DNA of 40,907 nucleotides. Origin: a virus. Shown piece by piece: positions 3,426 to 40,715 of the stretch (its first letter is position 1; the number at the start of each line of letters is the position of its first letter). The DNA lies in IMG/VR virus record IMGVR_UViG_3300045988_157868, positions 1-40,907 of that record; one strand, 5' to 3'. The notes under the pieces were generated by a model. The model was not told the origin of the DNA. It saw only the letters and a list, made by a program, of their open reading frames with translations, and did no database searches. A program made the position numbers and the translations under genes.

Positions 3426-4628
3426 TTAGTTAATGGCGAAATCTCGGATGTACATGCCCATGCCGAATCCGGTCTTTGCTGCCGGGTCCGAGAAATTCAC
3501 GCTCACCACACCTTCCCTTGTGATGGTGCACCAGCCGGGGGCGCTGCGTTTCTCTGGGCTGGTGAGGAAGAAATCCACATCCCGATTCGGGGGCCGGAAC
3601 TTCGGCGGAAGGGTCCCTTTCACACCAGCAGAAGCACCGCTGACAGCGACCCACACCATCGCGCCAATCCGGGTGAAAATGATTTCACCGTCATTCCACC
3701 GGATCAGATCATCTTCCGGCACGTCAAGACGACGATTCACCTCCTTGATTTTGGTATCAACATAGCCCTTATTAGCAATATGAGTAGCGGTGACGGGATC
3801 ACCAATATCCGCATGACCAGTATCACTACGAATCATGAGGGAGGCCTGGCCCGGAGTCAGTAATGCTGAGGCCACCGGCGGAAGACCCTGAATATCACGG
3901 ATCTGGTGCGTATGCTCCTTATCAGCCTTCTCCAGCCGGAGCTTGTTATCGGCTTTGTCCACGTAGTCCTTGTTGGTTGCATGAGCCGGCTCAGTGATCG
4001 AGGGTGTGGTGATAGCGATCCGACCATCCGCCTTGGTCTTCACAAACGCAGCCCGTTGCACATCATGATGAATACTGAAATCCACATCCCCCGCAGTAAT
4101 AACCTTAGGCTCAGCAGCAGTGCCAGTCAGATCTCCAGCAAGTTGGATTTTGCCCTGCACGGTAGCGGTAGCAGGAGGCGTCGGTTGCACCGCAGCAGTG
4201 GCGTTTTCCGCAGCAGTTTCCGCCTTCTTCGCCGCCACCTCAGCAGCGCGTTCTGCAGTGATGGCACCCTGCCAGGCAGCATAGGCGCGGTCAGCGTCCG
4301 CCGCTACCGCTGATTCCACTGACGGCCGGTACTGGAAACTGCGCTCCATACACGTACGCAGCGACACCGGACCCGTTCCCTCAGGGACCACAACCTCAAA
4401 CGGGGCACTGCCACGCACGGATTGGGTACGGATCTGCACCAGCAGCGGGCCAGACTCTACCTGGACCTCGGCTTTGCCGTCGGTCAGATCAACATGCACG
4501 GGGGCTGTCATGATAACCGACCCCGTGAAATCGGCGGAGCCGCGGAGCGCTGGTGCCTGCAAGAGCACGTAGTCCTCGGGGTGGGGCTTACCGCCCACAT
4601 CGCGCAGGTCAATGATGAGTGTTCGCAT
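3426..4628 (-). CDS. Tail fibre / minor tail protein
   Basis: 400 aa. Last large gene of the tail block. Fibre-like motifs (KADKEHTHQIRDIQGLP, NKGYVD and NKDYVD repeats) and an Ala-rich coiled segment. Confidence 0.6.
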   Translation of the reverse strand: MRTLIIDLRDVGGKPHPEDYVLLQAPALRGSADFTGSVIMTAPVHVDLTDGKAEVQVESGPLLVQIRTQSVRGSAPFEVVVPEGTGPVSLRTCMERSFQYRPSVESAVAADADRAYAAWQGAITAERAAEVAAKKAETAAENATAAVQPTPPATATVQGKIQLAGDLTGTAAEPKVITAGDVDFSIHHDVQRAAFVKTKADGRIAITTPSITEPAHATNKDYVDKADNKLRLEKADKEHTHQIRDIQGLPPVASALLTPGQASLMIRSDTGHADIGDPVTATHIANKGYVDTKIKEVNRRLDVPEDDLIRWNDGEIIFTRIGAMVWVAVSGASAGVKGTLPPKFRPPNRDVDFFLTSPEKRSAPGWCTITREGVVSVNFSDPAAKTGFGMGMYIRDFAIN

Positions 4629-11500: not shown

Positions 11501-13501
11501 CTGCACGCTATTTACGAACTCGTTGACCATGGATAGCACTTGACCGAGTGGACCCAGAGAAGACTGGCCGGCGGTGGCGGCGGCCTGGAACACACCGCTG
11601 ATGATGCCGCCCACGTCGGATAGGGTTTGGCCGATACCTTTCAGGGTGTTGATGCCGTTTTGCACCCACTGGTCGAACTGGCCAGTCTGGGTTGCCTGGG
11701 TAAGGAATTCACCCAGGCGGGCACCTGCCTCACCCAGGTATTGGCCTAACTGGGGCAAATATGCGGAGCTTGCTGCGCCGATATCCACAATGGCCTGGGT
11801 GAGAGGCCCAGCCGCTTGGTTTGTGCCGGCAAACGCTTGCCGGGTGTTTTCCAGCATGGTAGCCAGTCCAGTTTGGGAAGCCTCACTGGATAGTGCTGCA
11901 ATGTTTGCGCGCAGCCCAGTGTTGATTTCGCTAGCGATCCCCGCCAGGCCGGTCTTCAGCACGGGGAGCTGCACGGTCGCCAGGTTCGTGACGTCCTCAG
12001 CCAAGCCGTCGAACAGATTGTCCTGCACCGCGAATTTCAGGTCCTGCCACTGGTCGCCCAAGGCCTGCATGGCCAGCACGAACTCTTGTGCTTTCGGGGA
12101 CAGGTTCGCTAGAGCTTCGGCAAAGGGATCGACGCCACCAGCGGCAGAAGACGCCCCCTTCGCCAGGTTTTCCAGGGCGTCATCGAGGCGTTCCTGGGCG
12201 ACCAGCACATTTTCGTTTGCCTCTAGCAGGGCGCGCTGCGCGTCGGCTTCCCCACGGGTGGCGGCCTCGACTTTTTCCTTCGCATCCTGAACCTTCTGCG
12301 AGCCCTCGATACCGGCGTCGTTCGCTGCCTGCACGTCCTTGGCTAGCTGGTTGTTTTTCTCCCGCACTTCATCGAGGTTTTTGACCGCTTTGCGGTATGC
12401 CAGGTCAGCTTCGGCGATATCCAGGCCGGAAGAATCCTTATCGGCCTGGGCGTCAATCAGGGATTGGCGGGCGCGGGCGACCGCCAGGACGGCTTCTTCT
12501 TCCCCTAGGGCCGCGTCTTCCAGTTCACCCTTGAGCTCTTTCAGGTCTTTGACGGCTTCTTTACGGGCGTCGTTGAGGGCGTCTTGGGCTTTCCGGGTGT
12601 TCTTCTGCGCGTCGGCTACCCGCCGTTCGGCGTCTTCTACCCGACGGTTGGCCTGCACTAGGCCGCGTTCGGCAGACTCCACCTGCCGCTGCAGCTGCTT
12701 CATTTTGTCCGCGGTGTCGTCGGCTGCGCCGCCGGCGGATTTCCCCATGGCAGAAAACGCTGCACCCACACCGCTGAGTCCAATCCCTAGGGTGGCCAGG
12801 CCGGCCGCGGCGGATGCGGCTATGCCAGGGAGCACACCCAGCACACCGATCACGCCGGAGGCTGCGGCTGCTACAGACGCCAGGGGGCCAATACAGCCGG
12901 CCGCGGCAACAGCAATGATACCGATGCCGGTTGCTTGGGCCCCCACCATGCCCAATGATGATGCGGCACCAGCAGCCTGCGTGGCCATGGACGCCAGGCC
13001 GGACGCGGCGCTACCCGTATCCACGTCGATTTTGGCTTTACGGTCACGGGCAGCAGCAGCGATTTTTGCTTTCGCAGCCGCGGTATCAGCATCAACCTCA
13101 ACCGTGACGTGGCGGTTCTTAGCAGCCTGGTCAATGCGCTCCTTAGCAGGGGCAGTATCAGCATCAACCTCGATAGTGACCTTTTGCGGGCGGGTGAGAT
13201 ATTCGATACCTGACTTAGCGTCTGTGGTATCTGCCTCGGCCTGGATCGTGAGCGTCTGATCCCGGCCCAGCTGGGCGATCTTCCCCTTGGCCGCAGCAGC
13301 ATCCACATCCACATCAATCTCAGCGGTAGGGAGGTTCGCCATCTCGGCGCGCAGCTGCGCCCGGAAATCACTCAAATCCGGGCGAATCTCCACACCAAAT
13401 TGGGCATTAATCCGCTCCAGCTCCGCTTTCAGGCGCTTGGAGAACCCCGAAAGATTCGGTCTGATCTCAACCTTCGCAACCCCTGCGGTGTATTCAGCCA
13501 T
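8543..13501 (-). CDS. Tape measure protein with embedded NlpC/P60-like and lytic-transglycosylase-like motifs
   Basis: 1652 aa from ATG 13501 (MAEYTAGV; G-run SD upstream). The track start 13570 would overlap the chaperone ORF. Ala/Gly-rich and hydrophobic repeats. GKPYVWGGVHWGDCSGAMSAIARY (about 10005-10080). IQSESGGDPN...GLLQIIPATY (about 8975-9095). Confidence 0.9.
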   Translation of the reverse strand: MAEYTAGVAKVEIRPNLSGFSKRLKAELERINAQFGVEIRPDLSDFRAQLRAEMANLPTAEIDVDVDAAAAKGKIAQLGRDQTLTIQAEADTTDAKSGIEYLTRPQKVTIEVDADTAPAKERIDQAAKNRHVTVEVDADTAAAKAKIAAAARDRKAKIDVDTGSAASGLASMATQAAGAASSLGMVGAQATGIGIIAVAAAGCIGPLASVAAAASGVIGVLGVLPGIAASAAAGLATLGIGLSGVGAAFSAMGKSAGGAADDTADKMKQLQRQVESAERGLVQANRRVEDAERRVADAQKNTRKAQDALNDARKEAVKDLKELKGELEDAALGEEEAVLAVARARQSLIDAQADKDSSGLDIAEADLAYRKAVKNLDEVREKNNQLAKDVQAANDAGIEGSQKVQDAKEKVEAATRGEADAQRALLEANENVLVAQERLDDALENLAKGASSAAGGVDPFAEALANLSPKAQEFVLAMQALGDQWQDLKFAVQDNLFDGLAEDVTNLATVQLPVLKTGLAGIASEINTGLRANIAALSSEASQTGLATMLENTRQAFAGTNQAAGPLTQAIVDIGAASSAYLPQLGQYLGEAGARLGEFLTQATQTGQFDQWVQNGINTLKGIGQTLSDVGGIISGVFQAAATAGQSSLGPLGQVLSMVNEFVNSVQGQQALGSFFSSMTDGLAALMPILSTALTSIGTTIMPAISDFIQQAAPGVQMFVQGFADGLSALAPAMGPIGQLLSDIGAALAPLLPVLGELLTAALVPVAQGLSQVVGALAPVIQIAATALTPLIQQLAPIFSDLVGMLADLVTQYLGQLMPFLPQMVAAWQQIFDAVAPLIPVFTKLAFDIISPLIGVIGALMPAIVGLVQVFATIITAVAPVIAIIGELIGAVVKVLAAIINFVVQAVTNWDSFKARLIAATSQFITKIVSSFQQFISRAVSLIVDFGKRLVNQFMTMWNNASAAVANGVKAVVEKVKGIRQLVLDVFKGAKDWLINAGKTIISGLWNGMKDMWENVTEWFSDKLSAIRSPFSSRASRHATGSVRRYAAGGEDHSPQIAAGGEWRVWAEPETGGEAYIPLANDYRRSRAVAITAAVADHFGYSLVDAKGKGFAPVAKGSLGPTDVRAFAEGGITIDDLDSFASDLEGKPYVWGGVHWGDCSGAMSAIARYTAGVDPWAGRFTTASEKEGLSALGFLPGLGPSGSLQIGWYNGGPGGGHTSGTLPSGTNVEMGGGRGNGQFGGSAAPASHPQYTDHAHVPAEFFAPIKVPRMGGLGDIDFGHTDAASASAVETTDPSGDKLKSFRASGKSDPDSYVTGAKSDGPSSISEIVADFAKTAAAGHTKDLLGLVGVSDDIPMVKAYSQWLKARQSVSKRSGTAAKQKEITSLSQAAASVIDADPQVDTVEVTGLDLVGGLSPIKAPKADDGDIDHVYVPGGGAEQWRGMAMAAMRRVGFNADDPAQVNAMIKQIQSESGGDPNIAQQIVDVNGSGESAGVGLLQIIPATYAAHRDPELPNDRRNPFSNMVAALRYYRSRYGFDLTTMWGQGHGYAGGGLVEGPGGPTDDLIPAWLSNGEFVVREAATRHARPLLEMLNADPQHARAITQAATGTPPNPPADPPAPVEVHYHIETNNVEEGLRRSEMHARQQVMAMNGA

Positions 13502-35441: not shown

Positions 35442-35456
35442 TTTGTGCTTACGCAA
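35442..35456. promoter_or_regulatory. Operator-like repeat copy 1 (TTTGTGCTTACGCAA)
   Basis: Perfect 15-nt match to 35521-35535. Ends TTG.G...C.CAA show partial dyad symmetry. Confidence 0.55.
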
Positions 35457-35459
35457 GCA

Positions 35460-35488
35460 AGAATAGACCAATTTTTGTTCTAGCGCAA
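35460..35488 (-). promoter_or_regulatory. Candidate early (Cro-side) promoter overlapping operator copy 2
   Basis: On the minus strand: TTGCGC (35483-35488), 17-nt spacer, TATTCT (35460-35465). Operator-like copy 2, tttgttctagcgcaa (35474-35488), matches the repeat at 12 of 15. Confidence 0.4.
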
Positions 35489-35506
35489 GGCCAATTTGGA
35501 TTGGCC
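35489..35506. promoter_or_regulatory. Inverted repeat GGCCAAT-TTGG-ATTGGCC in the switch region
   Basis: 7-bp perfect arms with a 4-nt spacer, between the divergent promoters. Confidence 0.35.
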
Positions 35507-35513
35507 CAATAAC

Positions 35514-35542
35514 TTGCCTTTTTGTGCTTACGCAATTACGAT
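35514..35542 (+). promoter_or_regulatory. Candidate repressor promoter (leaderless) with operator copy 3 in the spacer
   Basis: TTGCCT (35514-35519), 17-nt spacer containing TTTGTGCTTACGCAA (35521-35535), TACGAT (35537-35542). The ATG follows 7 nt later at 35550, with no SD. Confidence 0.45.
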
Positions 35543-35549
35543 CTGACAC

Positions 35550-36083
35550 ATGAAGCAAACTCGCTGGTGGAAATACGTAACGGAAACAATCCAAGGTCGC
35601 ACTTTCAAAGAAGCTGCCAAAATCGCAGGATTCGATCAATCAGCTTTCACCCGATGGAAAGATGGTGCAGCCGCAAAACCTGAATTCGTTGTAAAATTTG
35701 CTCGCGCCTATAACCGCAATATCTTAGAAGCCCTAGTGGAGGCAGAATTTATCACAGAACAAGAAGCGGGATTGCAAAAAGTAAACGTTCCAGACATCCG
35801 ATCCGCACTACGACTCGCACCTGAAGAATGGTTAGCTGACGAAGTACTCAAACGAATGCGTGCAGGTGCAAAAACTGACGAGTTCGCGCCCCCTCTTGAC
35901 GAACTGGTTGAACGCCAACAACATAAAGCTAATAAACTAAACTCCGATCCTAAACCGGATGATCCTTGGGCTGCAGCGGCCGCAGTCAGTGGCAAGGACT
36001 CATGGCGCGGTGATGAAATGGTTGCCGACGACTCGGAGGAAGAAGGCTTCCTAGGTGACGATAATTACAGCGATGGTCCATAA
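35550..36083 (+). CDS. Immunity repressor candidate (HTH, no peptidase domain, acidic disordered C-terminus)
   Basis: 177 aa. HTH RTFKEAAKIAGFDQSAFTRWKDG. Divergent from the Cro-like gene. C-terminus DDSEEEGFLGDDNYSDGP. Confidence 0.65.
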   Translation: MKQTRWWKYVTETIQGRTFKEAAKIAGFDQSAFTRWKDGAAAKPEFVVKFARAYNRNILEALVEAEFITEQEAGLQKVNVPDIRSALRLAPEEWLADEVLKRMRAGAKTDEFAPPLDELVERQQHKANKLNSDPKPDDPWAAAAAVSGKDSWRGDEMVADDSEEEGFLGDDNYSDGP

Positions 36084-36134
36084 TTTTTGTGCTACAACCA
36101 GCGGGTTTCCCAATTCGGGACTAGCCTAGATGGC

Positions 36135-36599
36135 ATGGGAATTCTTAGTGTCGGCGGCCCACAGAATATGCTTTCACTCTCCGATAAAAGGCTTGCGCTT
36201 GTTTACGCCGCAGCTTTGGAGGTTTTTAAGCGAACCGGCCGCATTACTATCTGCTCTTGGTACGGCGATGAAGAACAATACGCTGCGGTGAGCGCATCCG
36301 CTCTCTTTCCTAAATCAATTCCTTTTCCTGGAAGAGCCTACAAGATCAAAGAAGTTGATGATGGCCAATACGTCTTGGTGCTCATTCCTGCTTACAGCAC
36401 AGAACCGGCACCGGTACCCAAGCCTAAAGCCGTCAAGAAAGTCGCCGATCTCGTCGAAAAGCATGATTGCTGGCTCATACTAGACAAAAGCGACCAAATC
36501 ATCAGCACCCCCAAGGTCATCGACGAAATCAAGGCCACTGCTAAGTGCATTGATGGAGTAGCCTATCTCAAGGAACTAAACGCCCAAGAAGAAGCTTAA
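36135..36599 (+). CDS. Hypothetical lysogeny-block protein
   Basis: ORF 36087-36599. Start uncertain (TTG 36087, ATG 36135 or ATG 36168). No motif recognised. Followed by a hairpin. Confidence 0.45.
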   Translation: MGILSVGGPQNMLSLSDKRLALVYAAALEVFKRTGRITICSWYGDEEQYAAVSASALFPKSIPFPGRAYKIKEVDDGQYVLVLIPAYSTEPAPVPKPKAVKKVADLVEKHDCWLILDKSDQIISTPKVIDEIKATAKCIDGVAYLKELNAQEEA

Positions 36600-36617
36600 A
36601 GTCCTTACCTACAAACA

Positions 36618-36646
36618 AACCCCGGCGCGCTCAGGTGACCGGGGTT
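36618..36646 (+). terminator. Hairpin after the 154-aa gene
   Basis: AACCCCGG (36618-36625) pairs with CCGGGGTT (36639-36646), with a 13-nt loop. Weak T-richness after it. Confidence 0.4.
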
Positions 36647-36673
36647 GATGTATTTGATAATTATGTGCATGGC

Positions 36674-36861
36674 CTGTAATCGAATCTTTATCTAAAACCT
36701 ATATACGAATAAGTCTTTAGCGGGTAGTGTTTTCCTTAAATAATATTCATAAGAACATGAGGGAACGACCATGGCCGGTATTTATGATGCCCGATCCACT
36801 AGAGAATGGTGCAATCAAGAAGCCGTAGGTGAGCTTTTTTGCCAGACGGTGCTTAACGATA
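36674..36861 (+). repeat. Copy A of the ~190-bp diverged direct repeat (leader plus first ~30 codons)
   Basis: Aligns by eye with 37312-37498 (for example aatctttatctaaaacctatatacgaataa vs aatctttacctaaaacctatatgcggataa; tatgatgcccgatccac in both). Confidence 0.8.
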
Positions 36862-36896
36862 GCGGAAGAGGTTGCAGTCATGATAACCATGCTTGA
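36771..36896 (+). pseudogene. Truncated 41-codon paralogue of the HIRAN/TM2 gene 5' end (or a leader ORF for the ImmA-like gene)
   Basis: MAGIYDARSTREWCNQEAVGELFCQTVLND... parallels MPSIYDARSTREWCDQETVGESFYRTALND... of the 399-aa gene. GAGGGA SD. Stop at 36894-36896, overlapping the ImmA-like start. Confidence 0.55.
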
Positions 36897-37287
36897 TTTG
36901 GAACAATTAGCCGAAGAGATGGGCGTTATGATAGTTACCCATACCGGTGGTAAGAAGGGTGGTTGGAATCCGACAACCCGCACCGTCAGCCTTCGGGAGG
37001 GCATGCACGAAGTGCAAACATTGTGCACGCTAGCACACGAGCTAGGGCATGCCCACTATAGACACCAGCTTGGCGCAACAGGATTGGCGCGCGAACAACA
37101 GGAACGCGAAGCAAACGAATGGGCCGCAATCTTACTCATAGATGAGAATGATTACATGGCGGCCGAAATCAACTGTGACAGTATAAGCTCGATCGCTCAC
37201 GAGCTGGGCGTGACTATTCTCATGGTAGGGATTTGGAGACAGCTCTACGCCAAAGGGAAGATACCGCAGTACTGCATCCAGGACTAA
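36880..37287 (+). CDS. ImmA/IrrE-family zinc metallopeptidase
   Basis: 135 aa from ATG 36880 (MITMLDLEQLAE). HEXXH motif LAHELGHAHY. EREANEWAAILLI is typical of the family. Confidence 0.75.
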   Translation: MITMLDLEQLAEEMGVMIVTHTGGKKGGWNPTTRTVSLREGMHEVQTLCTLAHELGHAHYRHQLGATGLAREQQEREANEWAAILLIDENDYMAAEINCDSISSIAHELGVTILMVGIWRQLYAKGKIPQYCIQD

Positions 37288-37311
37288 TGATTCCTCAATT
37301 GCTACGAAACC

Positions 37312-37498
37312 CCGTAACCGAATCTTTACCTAAAACCTATATGCGGATAACAGTTTAACGGGTAACCTTTTTCTTAAAGGAAGCTCATAAAAACATGAGG
37401 AGACAATCATGCCCAGCATCTATGATGCCCGATCCACCAGGGAATGGTGCGATCAGGAAACCGTAGGTGAGTCCTTTTATCGAACAGCGCTTAACGAT
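37312..37498 (+). repeat. Copy B of the ~190-bp diverged direct repeat
   Basis: See copy A. The minus-strand shadow ORFs 36747-37028 and 37385-37765 share the tail LTYGFLIAPF..GSGII..GH...LMFL, which reflects the repeat. Confidence 0.8.
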
Positions 37499-38608
37499 AT
37501 CAGAAAACTTGTTCCACTGAATGAGCATAAAGTTCGCCGATTTGACGCAACGCTCGTGTTGGAAATGGACAATCCACATTCCGAAGCTGGTCATGCAATA
37601 TCTGTCAGGTGGCAAGACCGGGTTATTGCTTATATACCCGATTTGGAGACTGATGATTATTTTCCCGAACTGGCACGCCTTGCCGCTAGCGGGTTCGATG
37701 CCGGAGTGAGGGGTACTTTGTGGACGAATGAGACACAGCCCAATTTCAATCCCAACGAGGTTCACATGTCAGTGCATGTTGGGCCGCAACCACCCGGCAT
37801 GATCGTGCCTATTAACAATCCGCCTTCACGAAAATGGGCAGTCATCCCCCGGGGACAAGCTAGCCAGGTCACTAAGGAAAAAGACCACCTCGATGTGCTG
37901 CAACCATATACGGGGCTAGGCCATAAGAAAACCTACATTCTTGTAACGCTGCACAAGGTGCTTCTTGGTACGCGCACCCGCTGGGCCGGGGTCGAGGTTC
38001 GACTAGACGGCAAGCGAATCGGAGAGTTAAGTAAGGCGACTGGGGCAAAATTCCTCCCCATCATTGAGCACTACGATTCTCTCGGGCTTGTTACCGTATG
38101 CCATGCCTATCTCAGGGAAACTGCCACCTCTGCTGAAGTTGCCCTCAAAGCTGCGACCTTTGAAGAGATAACAGATGCAGATCTATATAATCCCGTTGTA
38201 TGCCCGATTCCGCAGCTGGTGCCTTATGCTTTTGACCCTTACACCTATAATGTTCCCGGACGGTACCGGCCGGAACTCGAAGATGACGCATATAGTGATT
38301 GGGAATATGAAGAGCCCCATTACTTCAATCCGCCGCGACTGGGATACTACAATGCAGAGCTAGTAGGTCCCAACAATTCCGTGGGTAGGGCACCATTGCG
38401 GGGATATTTGCAAACCAGTATAGGCCTAAGCGGTAACAAGAGCTACGCTATCTACCTTCTTTGTCTTTTCTTTGGTGGCTACATCGGGTTGCACCACTAC
38501 TATGTAGGGAAAATCGGCAAAGGGGTTCTATATACATGCACAATGGGGTTGTTCATGATCGGCTGGATCGCAGATATTCTTAACCCCCGGCGCGGTTTTT
38601 ATAGCTAG
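37409..38608 (+). CDS. Membrane-anchored protein: HIRAN-like domain(s) plus C-terminal TM2 domain
   Basis: 399 aa. VGESFYRTAL...ATLVLEMDNPHSEAGHAISVRWQDRVIAYIPD (HIRAN-like). A second similar block, ILVTLHKVLL...VEVRLDGKRIGELS. C-terminal YAIYLLCLFFGGYIGLHHYYVGKIGKGVLYTCTMGLFMIGWIADIL (TM2-like). Confidence 0.65.
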   Translation: MPSIYDARSTREWCDQETVGESFYRTALNDIRKLVPLNEHKVRRFDATLVLEMDNPHSEAGHAISVRWQDRVIAYIPDLETDDYFPELARLAASGFDAGVRGTLWTNETQPNFNPNEVHMSVHVGPQPPGMIVPINNPPSRKWAVIPRGQASQVTKEKDHLDVLQPYTGLGHKKTYILVTLHKVLLGTRTRWAGVEVRLDGKRIGELSKATGAKFLPIIEHYDSLGLVTVCHAYLRETATSAEVALKAATFEEITDADLYNPVVCPIPQLVPYAFDPYTYNVPGRYRPELEDDAYSDWEYEEPHYFNPPRLGYYNAELVGPNNSVGRAPLRGYLQTSIGLSGNKSYAIYLLCLFFGGYIGLHHYYVGKIGKGVLYTCTMGLFMIGWIADILNPRRGFYS

Positions 38609-38625
38609 ATTGTTATAGGCCAAGT

Positions 38626-38661
38626 CCCCTATCCTCATCACGAGGGTGGGGGTTGTTTTTT
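38626..38661 (+). terminator. Rho-independent terminator after the HIRAN/TM2 gene
   Basis: CCCCTATCCTC-atcac-GAGGGTGGGG (bulged stem) followed by GTTGTTTTTTAT. Confidence 0.6.
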
Positions 38662-38674
38662 ATATTACCCCCAC

Positions 38675-38704
38675 TTGACACGTAACGTTCTAGAACTGTA
38701 TAAT
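38675..38704 (+). promoter_or_regulatory. Consensus sigma-70-type promoter
   Basis: TTGACA (38675-38680), 18-nt spacer, TATAAT (38699-38704). Confidence 0.65.
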
Positions 38705-39370: not shown

Positions 39371-39508
39371 GATCCTTACTTGGGTTGTTTTTCACGAAAC
39401 CCCACTAAAAAAGCGTGACCTGCGGTTTTATTTTTGAAGGTCTGAAAATTTGACCAAACCTCAAAATAAAAAACCAGGGCCTTCCCCATGTGGGTGAAAG
39501 TAACATCG

Positions 39509-39546
39509 TTGGTAATAATATAACTATCTGGCTATATTATTACCAA
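39509..39546. repeat. 14-bp perfect AT-rich inverted repeat just downstream of the integrase stop
   Basis: TTGGTAATAATATA (39509-39522) and TATATTATTACCAA (39533-39546), with a 10-nt spacer. Confidence 0.8.
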
Positions 39547-39557
39547 TAGTTTTACAT

Positions 39558-40715
39558 TTATGAACCCATGAGCGAGTCACTCACCCGCTGCAATGCCTCC
39601 TGGCGCCTGGCATTGGAGGTGCGCATATAGATCTCAGTGATGGTCTTTAGGTCTACCTGGCCTAGTAGCTCGCCAATCGCGGGGATTGTCATGCCCTGCT
39701 CCACCAGTGTGGTGATAAGCCACACACGACCATAGTGCGGGCTGATACGCTCGGTGATCCCGGCGCGGGTTTTAGCACGGTGGAGGACGGACCTGTAGGA
39801 GGTGTCTAGGATGATTTTGCCGGAGCCGGTGGTGCAGATGAAGGCGTCTGGGCTGTCGCCGATGGTGGCCAGGTGGTCGATGATGTCTTGGTGGAATTTT
39901 TTAAAGACGGGGATGGTGCGGTGGCTGGCGCTGGTTTTGGGGGTGTCCTGGTATTTCATGCCGTCTGAGGTGCGGTAGGCGTTTCCCCTGATATGGATGA
40001 GGATGGTGTCACCTGTAATGGTGATGTCTTTACGCCTGAGGCCTAGCACCTCTCCTATGCGCATGCCATGGAAGAACGTGAGGATACCTATTATCTTATG
40101 GGTCGGGTTTAAATTGTCCACAATTTTCTGCATGGTGGCGGCTTCGGGCAGTTCCTTGCGTGCTGGCTTGGGCTTGTGGCGGGCCTCTTTCACGTCCACT
40201 GGATTAGTAGGGATCAGATCCCGGTCTACCGCTGCCTGTATCGCAGTGCGAAGGCGCACATATGCCGCACGGTTATAGGGCTGGTATCCGAATTGTATGG
40301 TGAGCGCGTCCCACCAGTCGATTACATCACGGCGGGTAAGTCTTACCAGGGGGATGGTGCGGAGCCGACCGGCTTTGCCTGTGATAGTGAGAATACGGCG
40401 GTCGAGGGTGGTGCGGTAATTCACCATAGTGGAGGGCTTTAGGCGTTTTTCTTGGAGGTCTAGCCACTGGCGTAGCCAATCGCCGACGGTTCGGGCATCG
40501 TCTTCTTTCGTCCGGTACCGGAGGTGCGGGGGTTGCCATTCGTCGAATTCAATGAGTTTTTGTTCTTGACGCAGCCAGGCACCAGCATCGTCTTTGGTGA
40601 AGAATGGGTGGGGGCCGGAGTATTTTTTGCCATCAGGTCCGGTGTAGCGGGCGCGGTATTTGCCGGATGATAGCCGTGATATTGTGCCGAAGAGGCGTTT
40701 TTTAGGGGCGGGCAT
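39558..40715 (-). CDS. int: Tyrosine integrase
   Basis: 385 aa. HGMRIGEVLGLRRKDI (catalytic Arg region), SPHYGRVWLITTLVEQG (H..R), LKTITEIYMR (Tyr). Adjacent to the terminal repeat. Confidence 0.9.
   Translation of the reverse strand: MPAPKKRLFGTISRLSSGKYRARYTGPDGKKYSGPHPFFTKDDAGAWLRQEQKLIEFDEWQPPHLRYRTKEDDARTVGDWLRQWLDLQEKRLKPSTMVNYRTTLDRRILTITGKAGRLRTIPLVRLTRRDVIDWWDALTIQFGYQPYNRAAYVRLRTAIQAAVDRDLIPTNPVDVKEARHKPKPARKELPEAATMQKIVDNLNPTHKIIGILTFFHGMRIGEVLGLRRKDITITGDTILIHIRGNAYRTSDGMKYQDTPKTSASHRTIPVFKKFHQDIIDHLATIGDSPDAFICTTGSGKIILDTSYRSVLHRAKTRAGITERISPHYGRVWLITTLVEQGMTIPAIGELLGQVDLKTITEIYMRTSNARRQEALQRVSDSLMGS

Follow-up and report, generated by a model that had tools for sequence, protein, structure and literature searches.

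A remnant of a HIRAN-family gene as the probable expression module of an ImmA-like gene in a prophage of oral Corynebacterium

The viral record IMGVR_UViG_3300045988_157868, analysed over its whole length of 40,907 nucleotides (nt) and called the window below, is, judged from its sequence, a prophage of oral Corynebacterium. In its lysogeny module, an ImmA-like metallopeptidase gene (ImmA below) lies between two diverged direct repeats, each of which consists of a leader and the first 30 codons of an open reading frame (ORF). Copy B, downstream, heads an intact gene for a membrane protein of 399 amino acids (aa), here called HIRAN-like/TM2, while copy A, upstream, ends as a 41-codon stub that runs into the start of ImmA. 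Taking the explanation as a whole, we consider it probable that copy A is a relic of a HIRAN-family gene, i.e., its regulatory leader and first 30 codons, retained as the expression module of ImmA. The recombination step in this history we closely infer from relatives, and leader A apparently drives the expression of ImmA now. The case is an ordinary but tidy scar of phage gene shuffling, of a kind long described. The features on which the argument rests are the following.

36673..36867, + strand: repeat copy A, leader and first 30 codons of a HIRAN-family gene, probably a lost one (alignment, repeat search and shuffles; residues 1-30 of the stub match HIRAN/TM2 N-termini)
36771..36896, + strand: 41-codon stub ORF, a gene remnant and upstream ORF of ImmA (ORF list)
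36862..36871, + strand: recombination junction and Shine-Dalgarno (SD) sequence of ImmA, GGAAGAGG (SD at 36864-36871); homology with copy B fades after CTTAACGATA
36880..37287, + strand: ImmA-like M78 metallopeptidase, complete, with an HELGH motif (Pfam Peptidase_M78, PF06114, 1e-12; PHROG metallo-protease, 9e-24)
37311..37505, + strand: repeat copy B, leader and first 30 codons of the intact gene (alignment, repeat search)
37409..38608, + strand: gene of the 399-aa HIRAN-like/TM2 membrane protein (Pfam TM2, 7e-11, residues 343-390)

The repeat and the origin of the stub-ImmA junction

A repeat search of the region finds only one long direct repeat, which is ungapped and pairs 36673-36867 with 37311-37505 (195 nt, 78% identity, spacing 638). 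A MAFFT alignment of the two segments gives the identical register. With 152 of 195 positions identical, the repeat is far above the dinucleotide-preserving shuffles, where the best-offset identity averaged 36% and never exceeded 41% over 300 rounds. This confirms the diverged direct duplication proposed in an earlier note on this DNA; the ends given there (36674-36861 and 37312-37498) mark the right region and are one base off at each end, which is immaterial. By part, 35 of 40 positions agree in the 5' block, 21 of 33 in the middle leader and 19 of 25 in the 3' leader (the last 25 nt before the ATG). The 30 shared codons agree at 72 of 90 nt, the differences being spread 5/4/9 over the three codon positions. 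Copy B is also 88.7-90.3% identical to the single leader of a set of chromosomal remnant loci described below. On the opposite strand, two ORFs of 93 and 126 aa, 36747-37028 (-) and 37385-37765 (-), have near-identical peptide ends because both run through the repeat copies; they are almost certainly not genes.

Copy A had been described correctly as a 41-codon ORF whose stop overlaps the ImmA start. The stop, TGA at 36894-36896, lies beyond the ATG at 36880, which gives an overlap of 17 nt, and a second ATG is present at 36889. Residues 1-30 of the stub align with the N-termini of the HIRAN/TM2 family, and this supports the view that the stub is the truncated 5' end of a HIRAN-family gene. 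The ORF is open over 40-41 codons in 13/13 unique nucleotide variants and the sole indel is an in-frame deletion of 3 nt, i.e., the reading frame is preserved across the copies, as had been claimed. Among the stubs there are seven peptide variants, versus two substitutions in the N-termini of the full-length proteins (15 unique nucleotide variants). Likewise, the ratio of non-synonymous to synonymous substitution rates (dN/dS) is 0.21-0.35 in the stubs versus 0.04 for the same codons in full-length genes; the stub value is intermediate and confounded by possible gene conversion, and it is used here for relaxed constraint only. These substitution patterns mark the stub as a gene fragment in which the constraint on the protein is relaxed. 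In annotation, the 41-codon ORF should not be called a separate protein.

The same stub-ImmA junction occurs in 61/61 fetched loci that carry the stub, drawn from ENA, JGI, Logan and IMG/VR assemblies; some of these contigs were fetched twice. The stub-carrying loci lie in at least two different host flanks and have in common the junction sequence AAC(G/A)(A/C)TAG(C/T)GGAAGAGGTTGCAG. An identical junction in all carriers points to one old event and not to an assembly error.

That the structure is an assembly artefact after all, or that stub and ImmA form a single protein by programmed frameshifting, is a pair of ideas to which we give practically no credence. Recurrence in dozens of independent assemblies speaks against the artefact, which the earlier note had named among the outcomes that would undo its claim. 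A frameshift fusion might be imagined at a T6 run (36835-36840) inside the 68-nt overlap of the two frames, but the run is T5 or T4 in other variants and there is no conserved slippery site. Furthermore, ImmA homologues at 48-55% identity start at the same methionine, and an SD lies 8 nt ahead of the ATG of ImmA. The longer ImmA proteins of 173 aa and 151 aa differ at the C-terminus only, the former through an insertion sequence (IS) and the latter through a contig end. This IS, with DDE_Tnp_1/DDE_Tnp_4 domains, sits exactly at the ImmA stop codon in L027 (5001-6056) and L028 (5001-6245), where it yields the 173-aa ImmA with a foreign tail (P0056).

Gene order in relatives suggests where the fragment came from. 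In 26 distant viral loci (L081-L106; 40-53% protein identity), ImmA is followed after ~120 nt by a HIRAN-like gene. One of them, L094 (1359-4027), represents distant Corynebacterium prophages and contains the repressor, ImmA and a 508-aa HIRAN-domain protein without TM2. In L032 (1-1357) the order is opposite to that of the intact pair in the window: a HIRAN-family gene lies upstream of ImmA, and DUF433 and PIN genes follow downstream. This upstream gene is cut off at its 5' end by the border of the contig. It shares 50% identity with residues 146-289 of the 399-aa protein and has a different hydrophobic C-terminus; no relatives of it were found in viral contigs. The ImmA of L032 is, at 55% identity, among the closest homologues outside this phage group. 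Between the two genes, a GC-rich hairpin and a TATCAT -10-like box can be read by eye. No stub precedes the ImmA homologues of L030-L032, and the region ahead of these genes is their own and unrelated. On this gene order, ImmA and HIRAN-family genes are regular neighbours in relatives.

We suggest that, in an arrangement like that of L032, ImmA was once directly preceded by a HIRAN-family membrane-protein gene. One old illegitimate recombination, in the simplest form a deletion, would have reached from codon 31 to just before the ImmA SD and removed the rest of the HIRAN-family gene, its terminator and ImmA's own promoter region. The earlier note had offered insertion or replacement of a cassette at a shared leader. 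Of this, the recombination origin stands, with one junction in 61 loci, while an insertion of ImmA as the cassette is probably not what happened, given the order in L032. The related idea that the leader heads different cargo genes is not borne out, as in every collection searched it heads only the stub with ImmA or the HIRAN/TM2 gene. A-type leaders are always followed by a 40-41-codon stub and then ImmA, never by a long gene; for example, an exact 35-mer scan of metagenomes with the A-type 3' leader gives 14 loci, all with stub and ImmA.

Leader A and the expression of ImmA

The evidence that leader A is in use comes from four elements on the + strand.

36621..36647, + strand: GC-rich hairpin after the gene orf170, a probable terminator without a clean U-tract (folding of variants)
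36681..36709, + strand: conserved 29-nt 5' block of copy A, CGAATCTTTATCTAAAACCTATATACGAA; the sole other match in the window is the block of copy B, 0 being expected
36734..36768, + strand: A-type 3' leader, invariant in all A variants, with a -10-like AATAAT/TAATAT at 36739-36746 and the stub SD GAGGG at 36759-36763
37319..37347, + strand: conserved 29-nt 5' block of copy B (window motif search)

The 35 nt at 36734-36768 have zero variable columns among 7 unique A-type leaders that are ~15% different elsewhere (P ~0.003), and the fixed differences between A and B cluster in this stretch. The 29-nt block CGAATCTTTAYCTAAAACCTATATRCGRA is found in the window only at 36681-36709 and 37319-37347. 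The two blocks differ at 3/29 positions and the remaining leader at 18/61 (30%; P=0.014), and the synonymous difference between the stub and full-length codons (pS 0.62) is far above the divergence of the block. The hairpin at 36621-36647 has a stem of 8-11 base pairs (bp) in 18/18 sequence variants, and its closing pair shows a compensatory change from A-T to G-C, which supports a real stem. Since this hairpin after orf170 is kept, the stub and ImmA probably need their own start signals. The stub and ImmA are also retained together in phages with a deletion of the HIRAN/TM2 gene or without this gene. Of the alternatives raised earlier for the conserved non-coding part, a promoter or operator is plausible, as the shared block is constrained, while a structured RNA is not supported, see below.

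In the mechanism that we propose, leader A, placed past the hairpin that ends the repressor-orf170 unit, would supply start signals for both transcription and translation. Translation of the 41-codon stub would bring ribosomes to a stop 17 nt into ImmA, and this could keep the ImmA start open or allow re-initiation, besides the action of ImmA's own SD. Features of the coupling type are present: the stub stop overlaps the ImmA start, the stub SD and ATG are invariant and the frame is kept, although the statistical weight of these is modest. The proposal of the earlier note that the stub overlaps ImmA in the manner of a coupling ORF is supported by the 17-nt overlap, and coupling itself is a prediction. 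Copy B is the intact sister unit downstream of ImmA, absent from some related phages, and through the common 29-nt block ImmA and HIRAN/TM2 would probably receive a common input from polymerase or a regulator.

Stub and leader A could instead be a dead scar. In this case, read-through out of the repressor-orf170 operon would provide the ImmA transcript, the SD of ImmA would serve its translation, and the conservation would reflect youth or gene conversion. We regard this as unlikely. The poorly conserved stub peptide and the ImmA SD, 8 nt before its ATG, are as expected from a scar, and read-through is made easier to envisage by the hairpin after orf170, which lacks a clean U-tract and is not called by the terminator scan, and by the L094-type phages, where ImmA directly follows the repressor. 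There are also signs of gene conversion, as stub variant A2 contains a B-like tract and the leaders of L037 and L045 are hybrids. However, a scar does not account for the invariance of the 35 nt with -10-like box and SD up to the ATG, nor for a start codon, frame and overlapping stop kept in all 13 variants with the one deletion in frame. The hairpin is maintained by compensatory change, and the relic is retained in phages without copy B in the same genome.

A second alternative is that the duplicate leader was retained mainly for a shared operator, the 29-nt block, as a switch with two outputs, the stub peptide being perhaps regulatory. This appears very unlikely to us. It is favoured by the block being near-identical in A, B and the remnant copies, versus 62% synonymous divergence, and occurring nowhere else in the window. 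Also, several distant lineages have ImmA beside a HIRAN-family gene, and in the distant leaders (L081-L106) AAAACTATATAC can be read by eye at a distance to the ATG like that of AAAACCTATAT in the window. On the other side, no regulator was identified, and the block has no clear dyad symmetry and is unlike the CI-type operators at 35442-35535 or a LexA box. In a search with up to 3 mismatches, no LexA box was found near the leaders, and the window has fewer matches than its shuffles. The 3' halves of the leaders carry fixed differences, so the outputs may differ, many phages keep leader A without the HIRAN/TM2 gene, and the stub peptide is variable.

The broader thought that both leaders are one shared control input, with the 29-nt block bound by one regulator and the ImmA protease and the HIRAN-like membrane protein switched together, we hold to be quite unlikely. 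If true, it would describe a lysogeny circuit in oral Corynebacterium phages that ties prophage induction to a ThaL-like membrane sensor or effector, HIRAN-like denoting a DNA-end-binding type. A translated stub could then add a control step, and the recurrent neighbourhood of ImmA and HIRAN-family genes would reflect a functional partnership and not chance.

That the leaders are a structured cis-regulatory RNA common to both genes, such as a riboswitch or attenuator, is highly improbable. About 98 nt of conserved non-coding sequence precede both ORFs and a small CUCAU/AUGAG hairpin can form beside the SD in both copies. Against this, no Rfam family reaches its gathering score anywhere in the window, and there is at E<=10 over 36550-37600 only a chance-level match to tsr32. 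The folding z-scores are +2.14 (A) and -0.76 (B), and no z-score is significant when the two leaders, on either strand, or the stub mRNA are folded as single strands. RNAalifold on 15 unique leaders yields -11.9 kcal/mol with a covariation term of -1.6 and double changes in 2 pairs only, and a B-specific CCUUU/AAAGG hairpin is destroyed in copy A. The structured leader with covariation suggested earlier is thus not supported by Rfam, folding z-scores or RNAalifold.

We therefore return to the relic retained as expression module, against which several observations weigh. No full-length gene with an A-type leader was found, as a search with the stub protein gave 40-41-aa stubs only, and the donor is inferred. 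Other orders of events fit equally well, such as a crossover of two phages, or loss after a tandem duplication. A sigma-70 scan calls no promoter in leader A or B, and the three weak -10 candidates seen by eye (GATAAT at 36656-36661, TAGTGT/TAACCT, and AATAAT at 36739-36744) cannot be ranked. As ImmA has a good SD of its own, coupling may be unneeded. The open stub ORF is weak evidence alone, since by a rough estimate the absence of a stop is expected about half the time. The stub dN/dS below 1 could come from transition bias or from gene conversion by full-length copies, and gene conversion between the copies could also have aided the conservation of the 29-nt block.

The HIRAN-like/TM2 unit and exchange between the copies

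The earlier statement that copy B heads a full HIRAN/TM2 gene holds for the 399-aa ORF and its TM2 match; the HIRAN part is not detected in the window protein by Pfam. In three homologues, the Pfam HIRAN match is near the gathering score of 24.7 bits, below it for P0019 (24.0) and above it for P0020 (25.2) and the L094 protein (25.4). With matches at about threshold, and in homologues only, HIRAN-like is the safe label. The AlphaFold model of the 399-aa protein has a mean confidence (pLDDT) of 51.6, too poor for a fold search. The 55 homologues of the protein come mostly from oral metagenomes and Corynebacterium. Among GenBank phages, blastn with the region gives no match, and tblastn with the 399-aa protein gives TM2-domain matches only.

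37300..38652, + strand: HIRAN-like/TM2 unit (leader B, gene and terminator), variably present in related phages (edges from comparison of phages)

Four states are seen after ImmA in the compared phages, and these place the edges of the unit at 37299|37300 and ~38601-38615. The left edge is the point where four phages without a trace of the unit beyond it diverge from the window, and in two remnant loci the similarity to the window begins only at 37302 and 37309. Two distinct internal deletions are found in other phages, from 37341 to 38601 and from 37358 to 38615. The unit has its own terminator at 38626-38652, an 11-bp hairpin followed by a T-run. For its promoter, no sigma-70-like site passes the scan, and only weak TANNNT candidates are seen by eye.

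Remnants of a prophage lysogeny region in Corynebacterium chromosomes, near smpB (L001-L010, L044, L047 and L060; e.g., L001 5535-7143), contain a HIRAN-like/TM2 gene that is intact and headed by a B-like leader. The ImmA ahead of this leader is decayed to 100-130 aa and is 35% identical to the window ImmA (Pfam M78 8e-5). An intact gene in a decayed remnant suggests that the HIRAN-like/TM2 gene may be useful to the host, and the recurrent neighbourhood with ImmA in Corynebacterium prophages is consistent with such a benefit. Beside the remnant in L003 there is a second prophage with holin and lysin genes, and in the remnant locus L002 an IS with DDE_Tnp_1/DDE_Tnp_4 domains (3652-4296) adjoins a RelA_SpoT gene.

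The two copies appear to exchange sequence. In L056, an A-type flank is followed by a B-type leader and the full HIRAN/TM2 gene, without ImmA. The switch from A to B lies within an identical stretch of 24 nt, CGAATCTTTACCTAAAACCTATAT, and the B part matches the B copy of L048-type phages. By its sequence, L056 is the product expected of a crossover between copies A and B. The hybrid leaders of L037 and L045 and the B-like tract of stub variant A2 further suggest gene conversion between the copies. The direct repeats could thus act as a recombination substrate in which a crossover in the 24-nt stretch deletes ImmA. Such a built-in route to the loss of ImmA, seen in one contig, may yield non-inducible prophages.

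Known systems and the prophage context

In temperate actinobacteriophages, mosaic junctions and gene remnants arise by illegitimate recombination at or near gene boundaries. The stub-ImmA junction resembles these in that a truncated 5' gene fragment stands beside an unrelated gene, the homology breaks off abruptly at a ribosome-binding site, and neighbouring units vary in presence among related phages. It differs in that the fragment brought along its whole leader, seemingly kept as the expression signal of the downstream gene, and in that an intact diverged sister copy 638 bp away mimics a duplication. The case would be a well-sampled natural example of how phage gene shuffling can rewire regulation, with a leftover leader and first codons kept as the expression signal of another gene. 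It leaves the current understanding of phage biology unchanged and would come as no surprise to a phage genomicist.

Translationally coupled overlapping ORFs and upstream leader ORFs occur in bacterial and phage operons. Like these, the stub possesses an SD and an ATG of its own and overlaps the following gene by 17 nt; however, it is a gene fragment and not a dedicated leader peptide, and its coupling is predicted only. Phage morons are self-contained insertions of promoter, gene and terminator in prophages. The HIRAN-like/TM2 unit is similar in that it is variably present among similar phages, ends in a terminator and is intact in a decayed remnant, while it differs in having only candidate promoters and the same GC content as the lysogeny module. 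A HIRAN-type membrane protein of another phage is alike by description only (a HIRAN-type N-terminal region and membrane segments, in a prophage lysogeny module), but that phage has a C1-type repressor and not ImmA.

Modules of an ImmR repressor and an ImmA anti-repressor protease are known from ICEBs1, phage phi105 and pneumococcal ImmAR prophages (PMC12637031), with IrrE/DdrO and CapP/CapH as related pairs. The window has in common with them an M78 (COG2856) peptidase with an HEXXH motif, located in a lysogeny module and co-oriented with a helix-turn-helix (HTH) repressor, and PADLOC gives a weak capP match to ImmA (7e-6). In contrast to these modules, the repressor lies ~800 bp upstream, with orf170, the hairpin, and the captured leader and stub in between, and its cleavage by ImmA is putative.

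35550..36083, + strand: prophage repressor (HTH; PHROG transcriptional repressor families, E-values 1e-11 to 4e-17; weak Pfam HTH_31)
36087..36599, + strand: orf170, of unknown function, between the repressor and leader A (ORF list; kept upstream of the stub in related loci)

On the + strand, the module reads repressor, orf170, hairpin, leader A with stub, ImmA, leader B with the HIRAN-like/TM2 gene, and terminator, followed by an Xis-like gene; beyond this, the integrase lies on the - strand (39558-40715). The repressor is homologous to the one directly upstream of ImmA in L094. The gene orf170, called as 154 aa in related contigs, has no Pfam, PHROG or PADLOC match. The GC content is 56.9% in the window and ~46-51% throughout the lysogeny module. 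Named homologues of ImmA and the 399-aa protein are mostly from Corynebacterium, including C. matruchotii, and some ImmA homologues are from Microbacterium. A leader scan of species-representative genomes gave one real match, the remnant in a metagenome-assembled genome of an uncultured Corynebacterium, and six further matches without similarity to the window, which we take as chance.

Several smaller observations concern the surroundings of the module. The gap between the divergent HTH genes holds three copies of TTTGTGCTTACGCAA at 35442-35456, 35474-35488 and 35521-35535, two of them exact and one with 3 mismatches. By sequence and position, these are probably the CI/Cro-type operators of the prophage. 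The motif is absent from leaders A and B, and elsewhere in the window it has only one match, with 3 mismatches, at 13063. Just past the terminator at 38626-38652, there is a perfect TTGACA-N18-TATAAT (38675-38704), ahead of a small ORF whose tail is basic and, after it, the Xis-like gene. The 10 nt that follow the -10 box of this promoter-like site, GGGTAGTGTT, recur in leader A at 36722-36731. An AT-rich 26-nt inverted repeat (39497-39558, 81% complementary, 10-nt spacer) immediately precedes the integrase start and may be an attP core or have a regulatory role. Ahead of the repressor, the early regions vary among phages that have the stub-ImmA unit in common, i.e., the genomes are mosaic, and in related phages these regions include genes (e.g., L011 463-678) with a weak Pfam match to Acb2_Tad1_hairpin, of the anti-defence sponge type, together with a DUF7701 gene.

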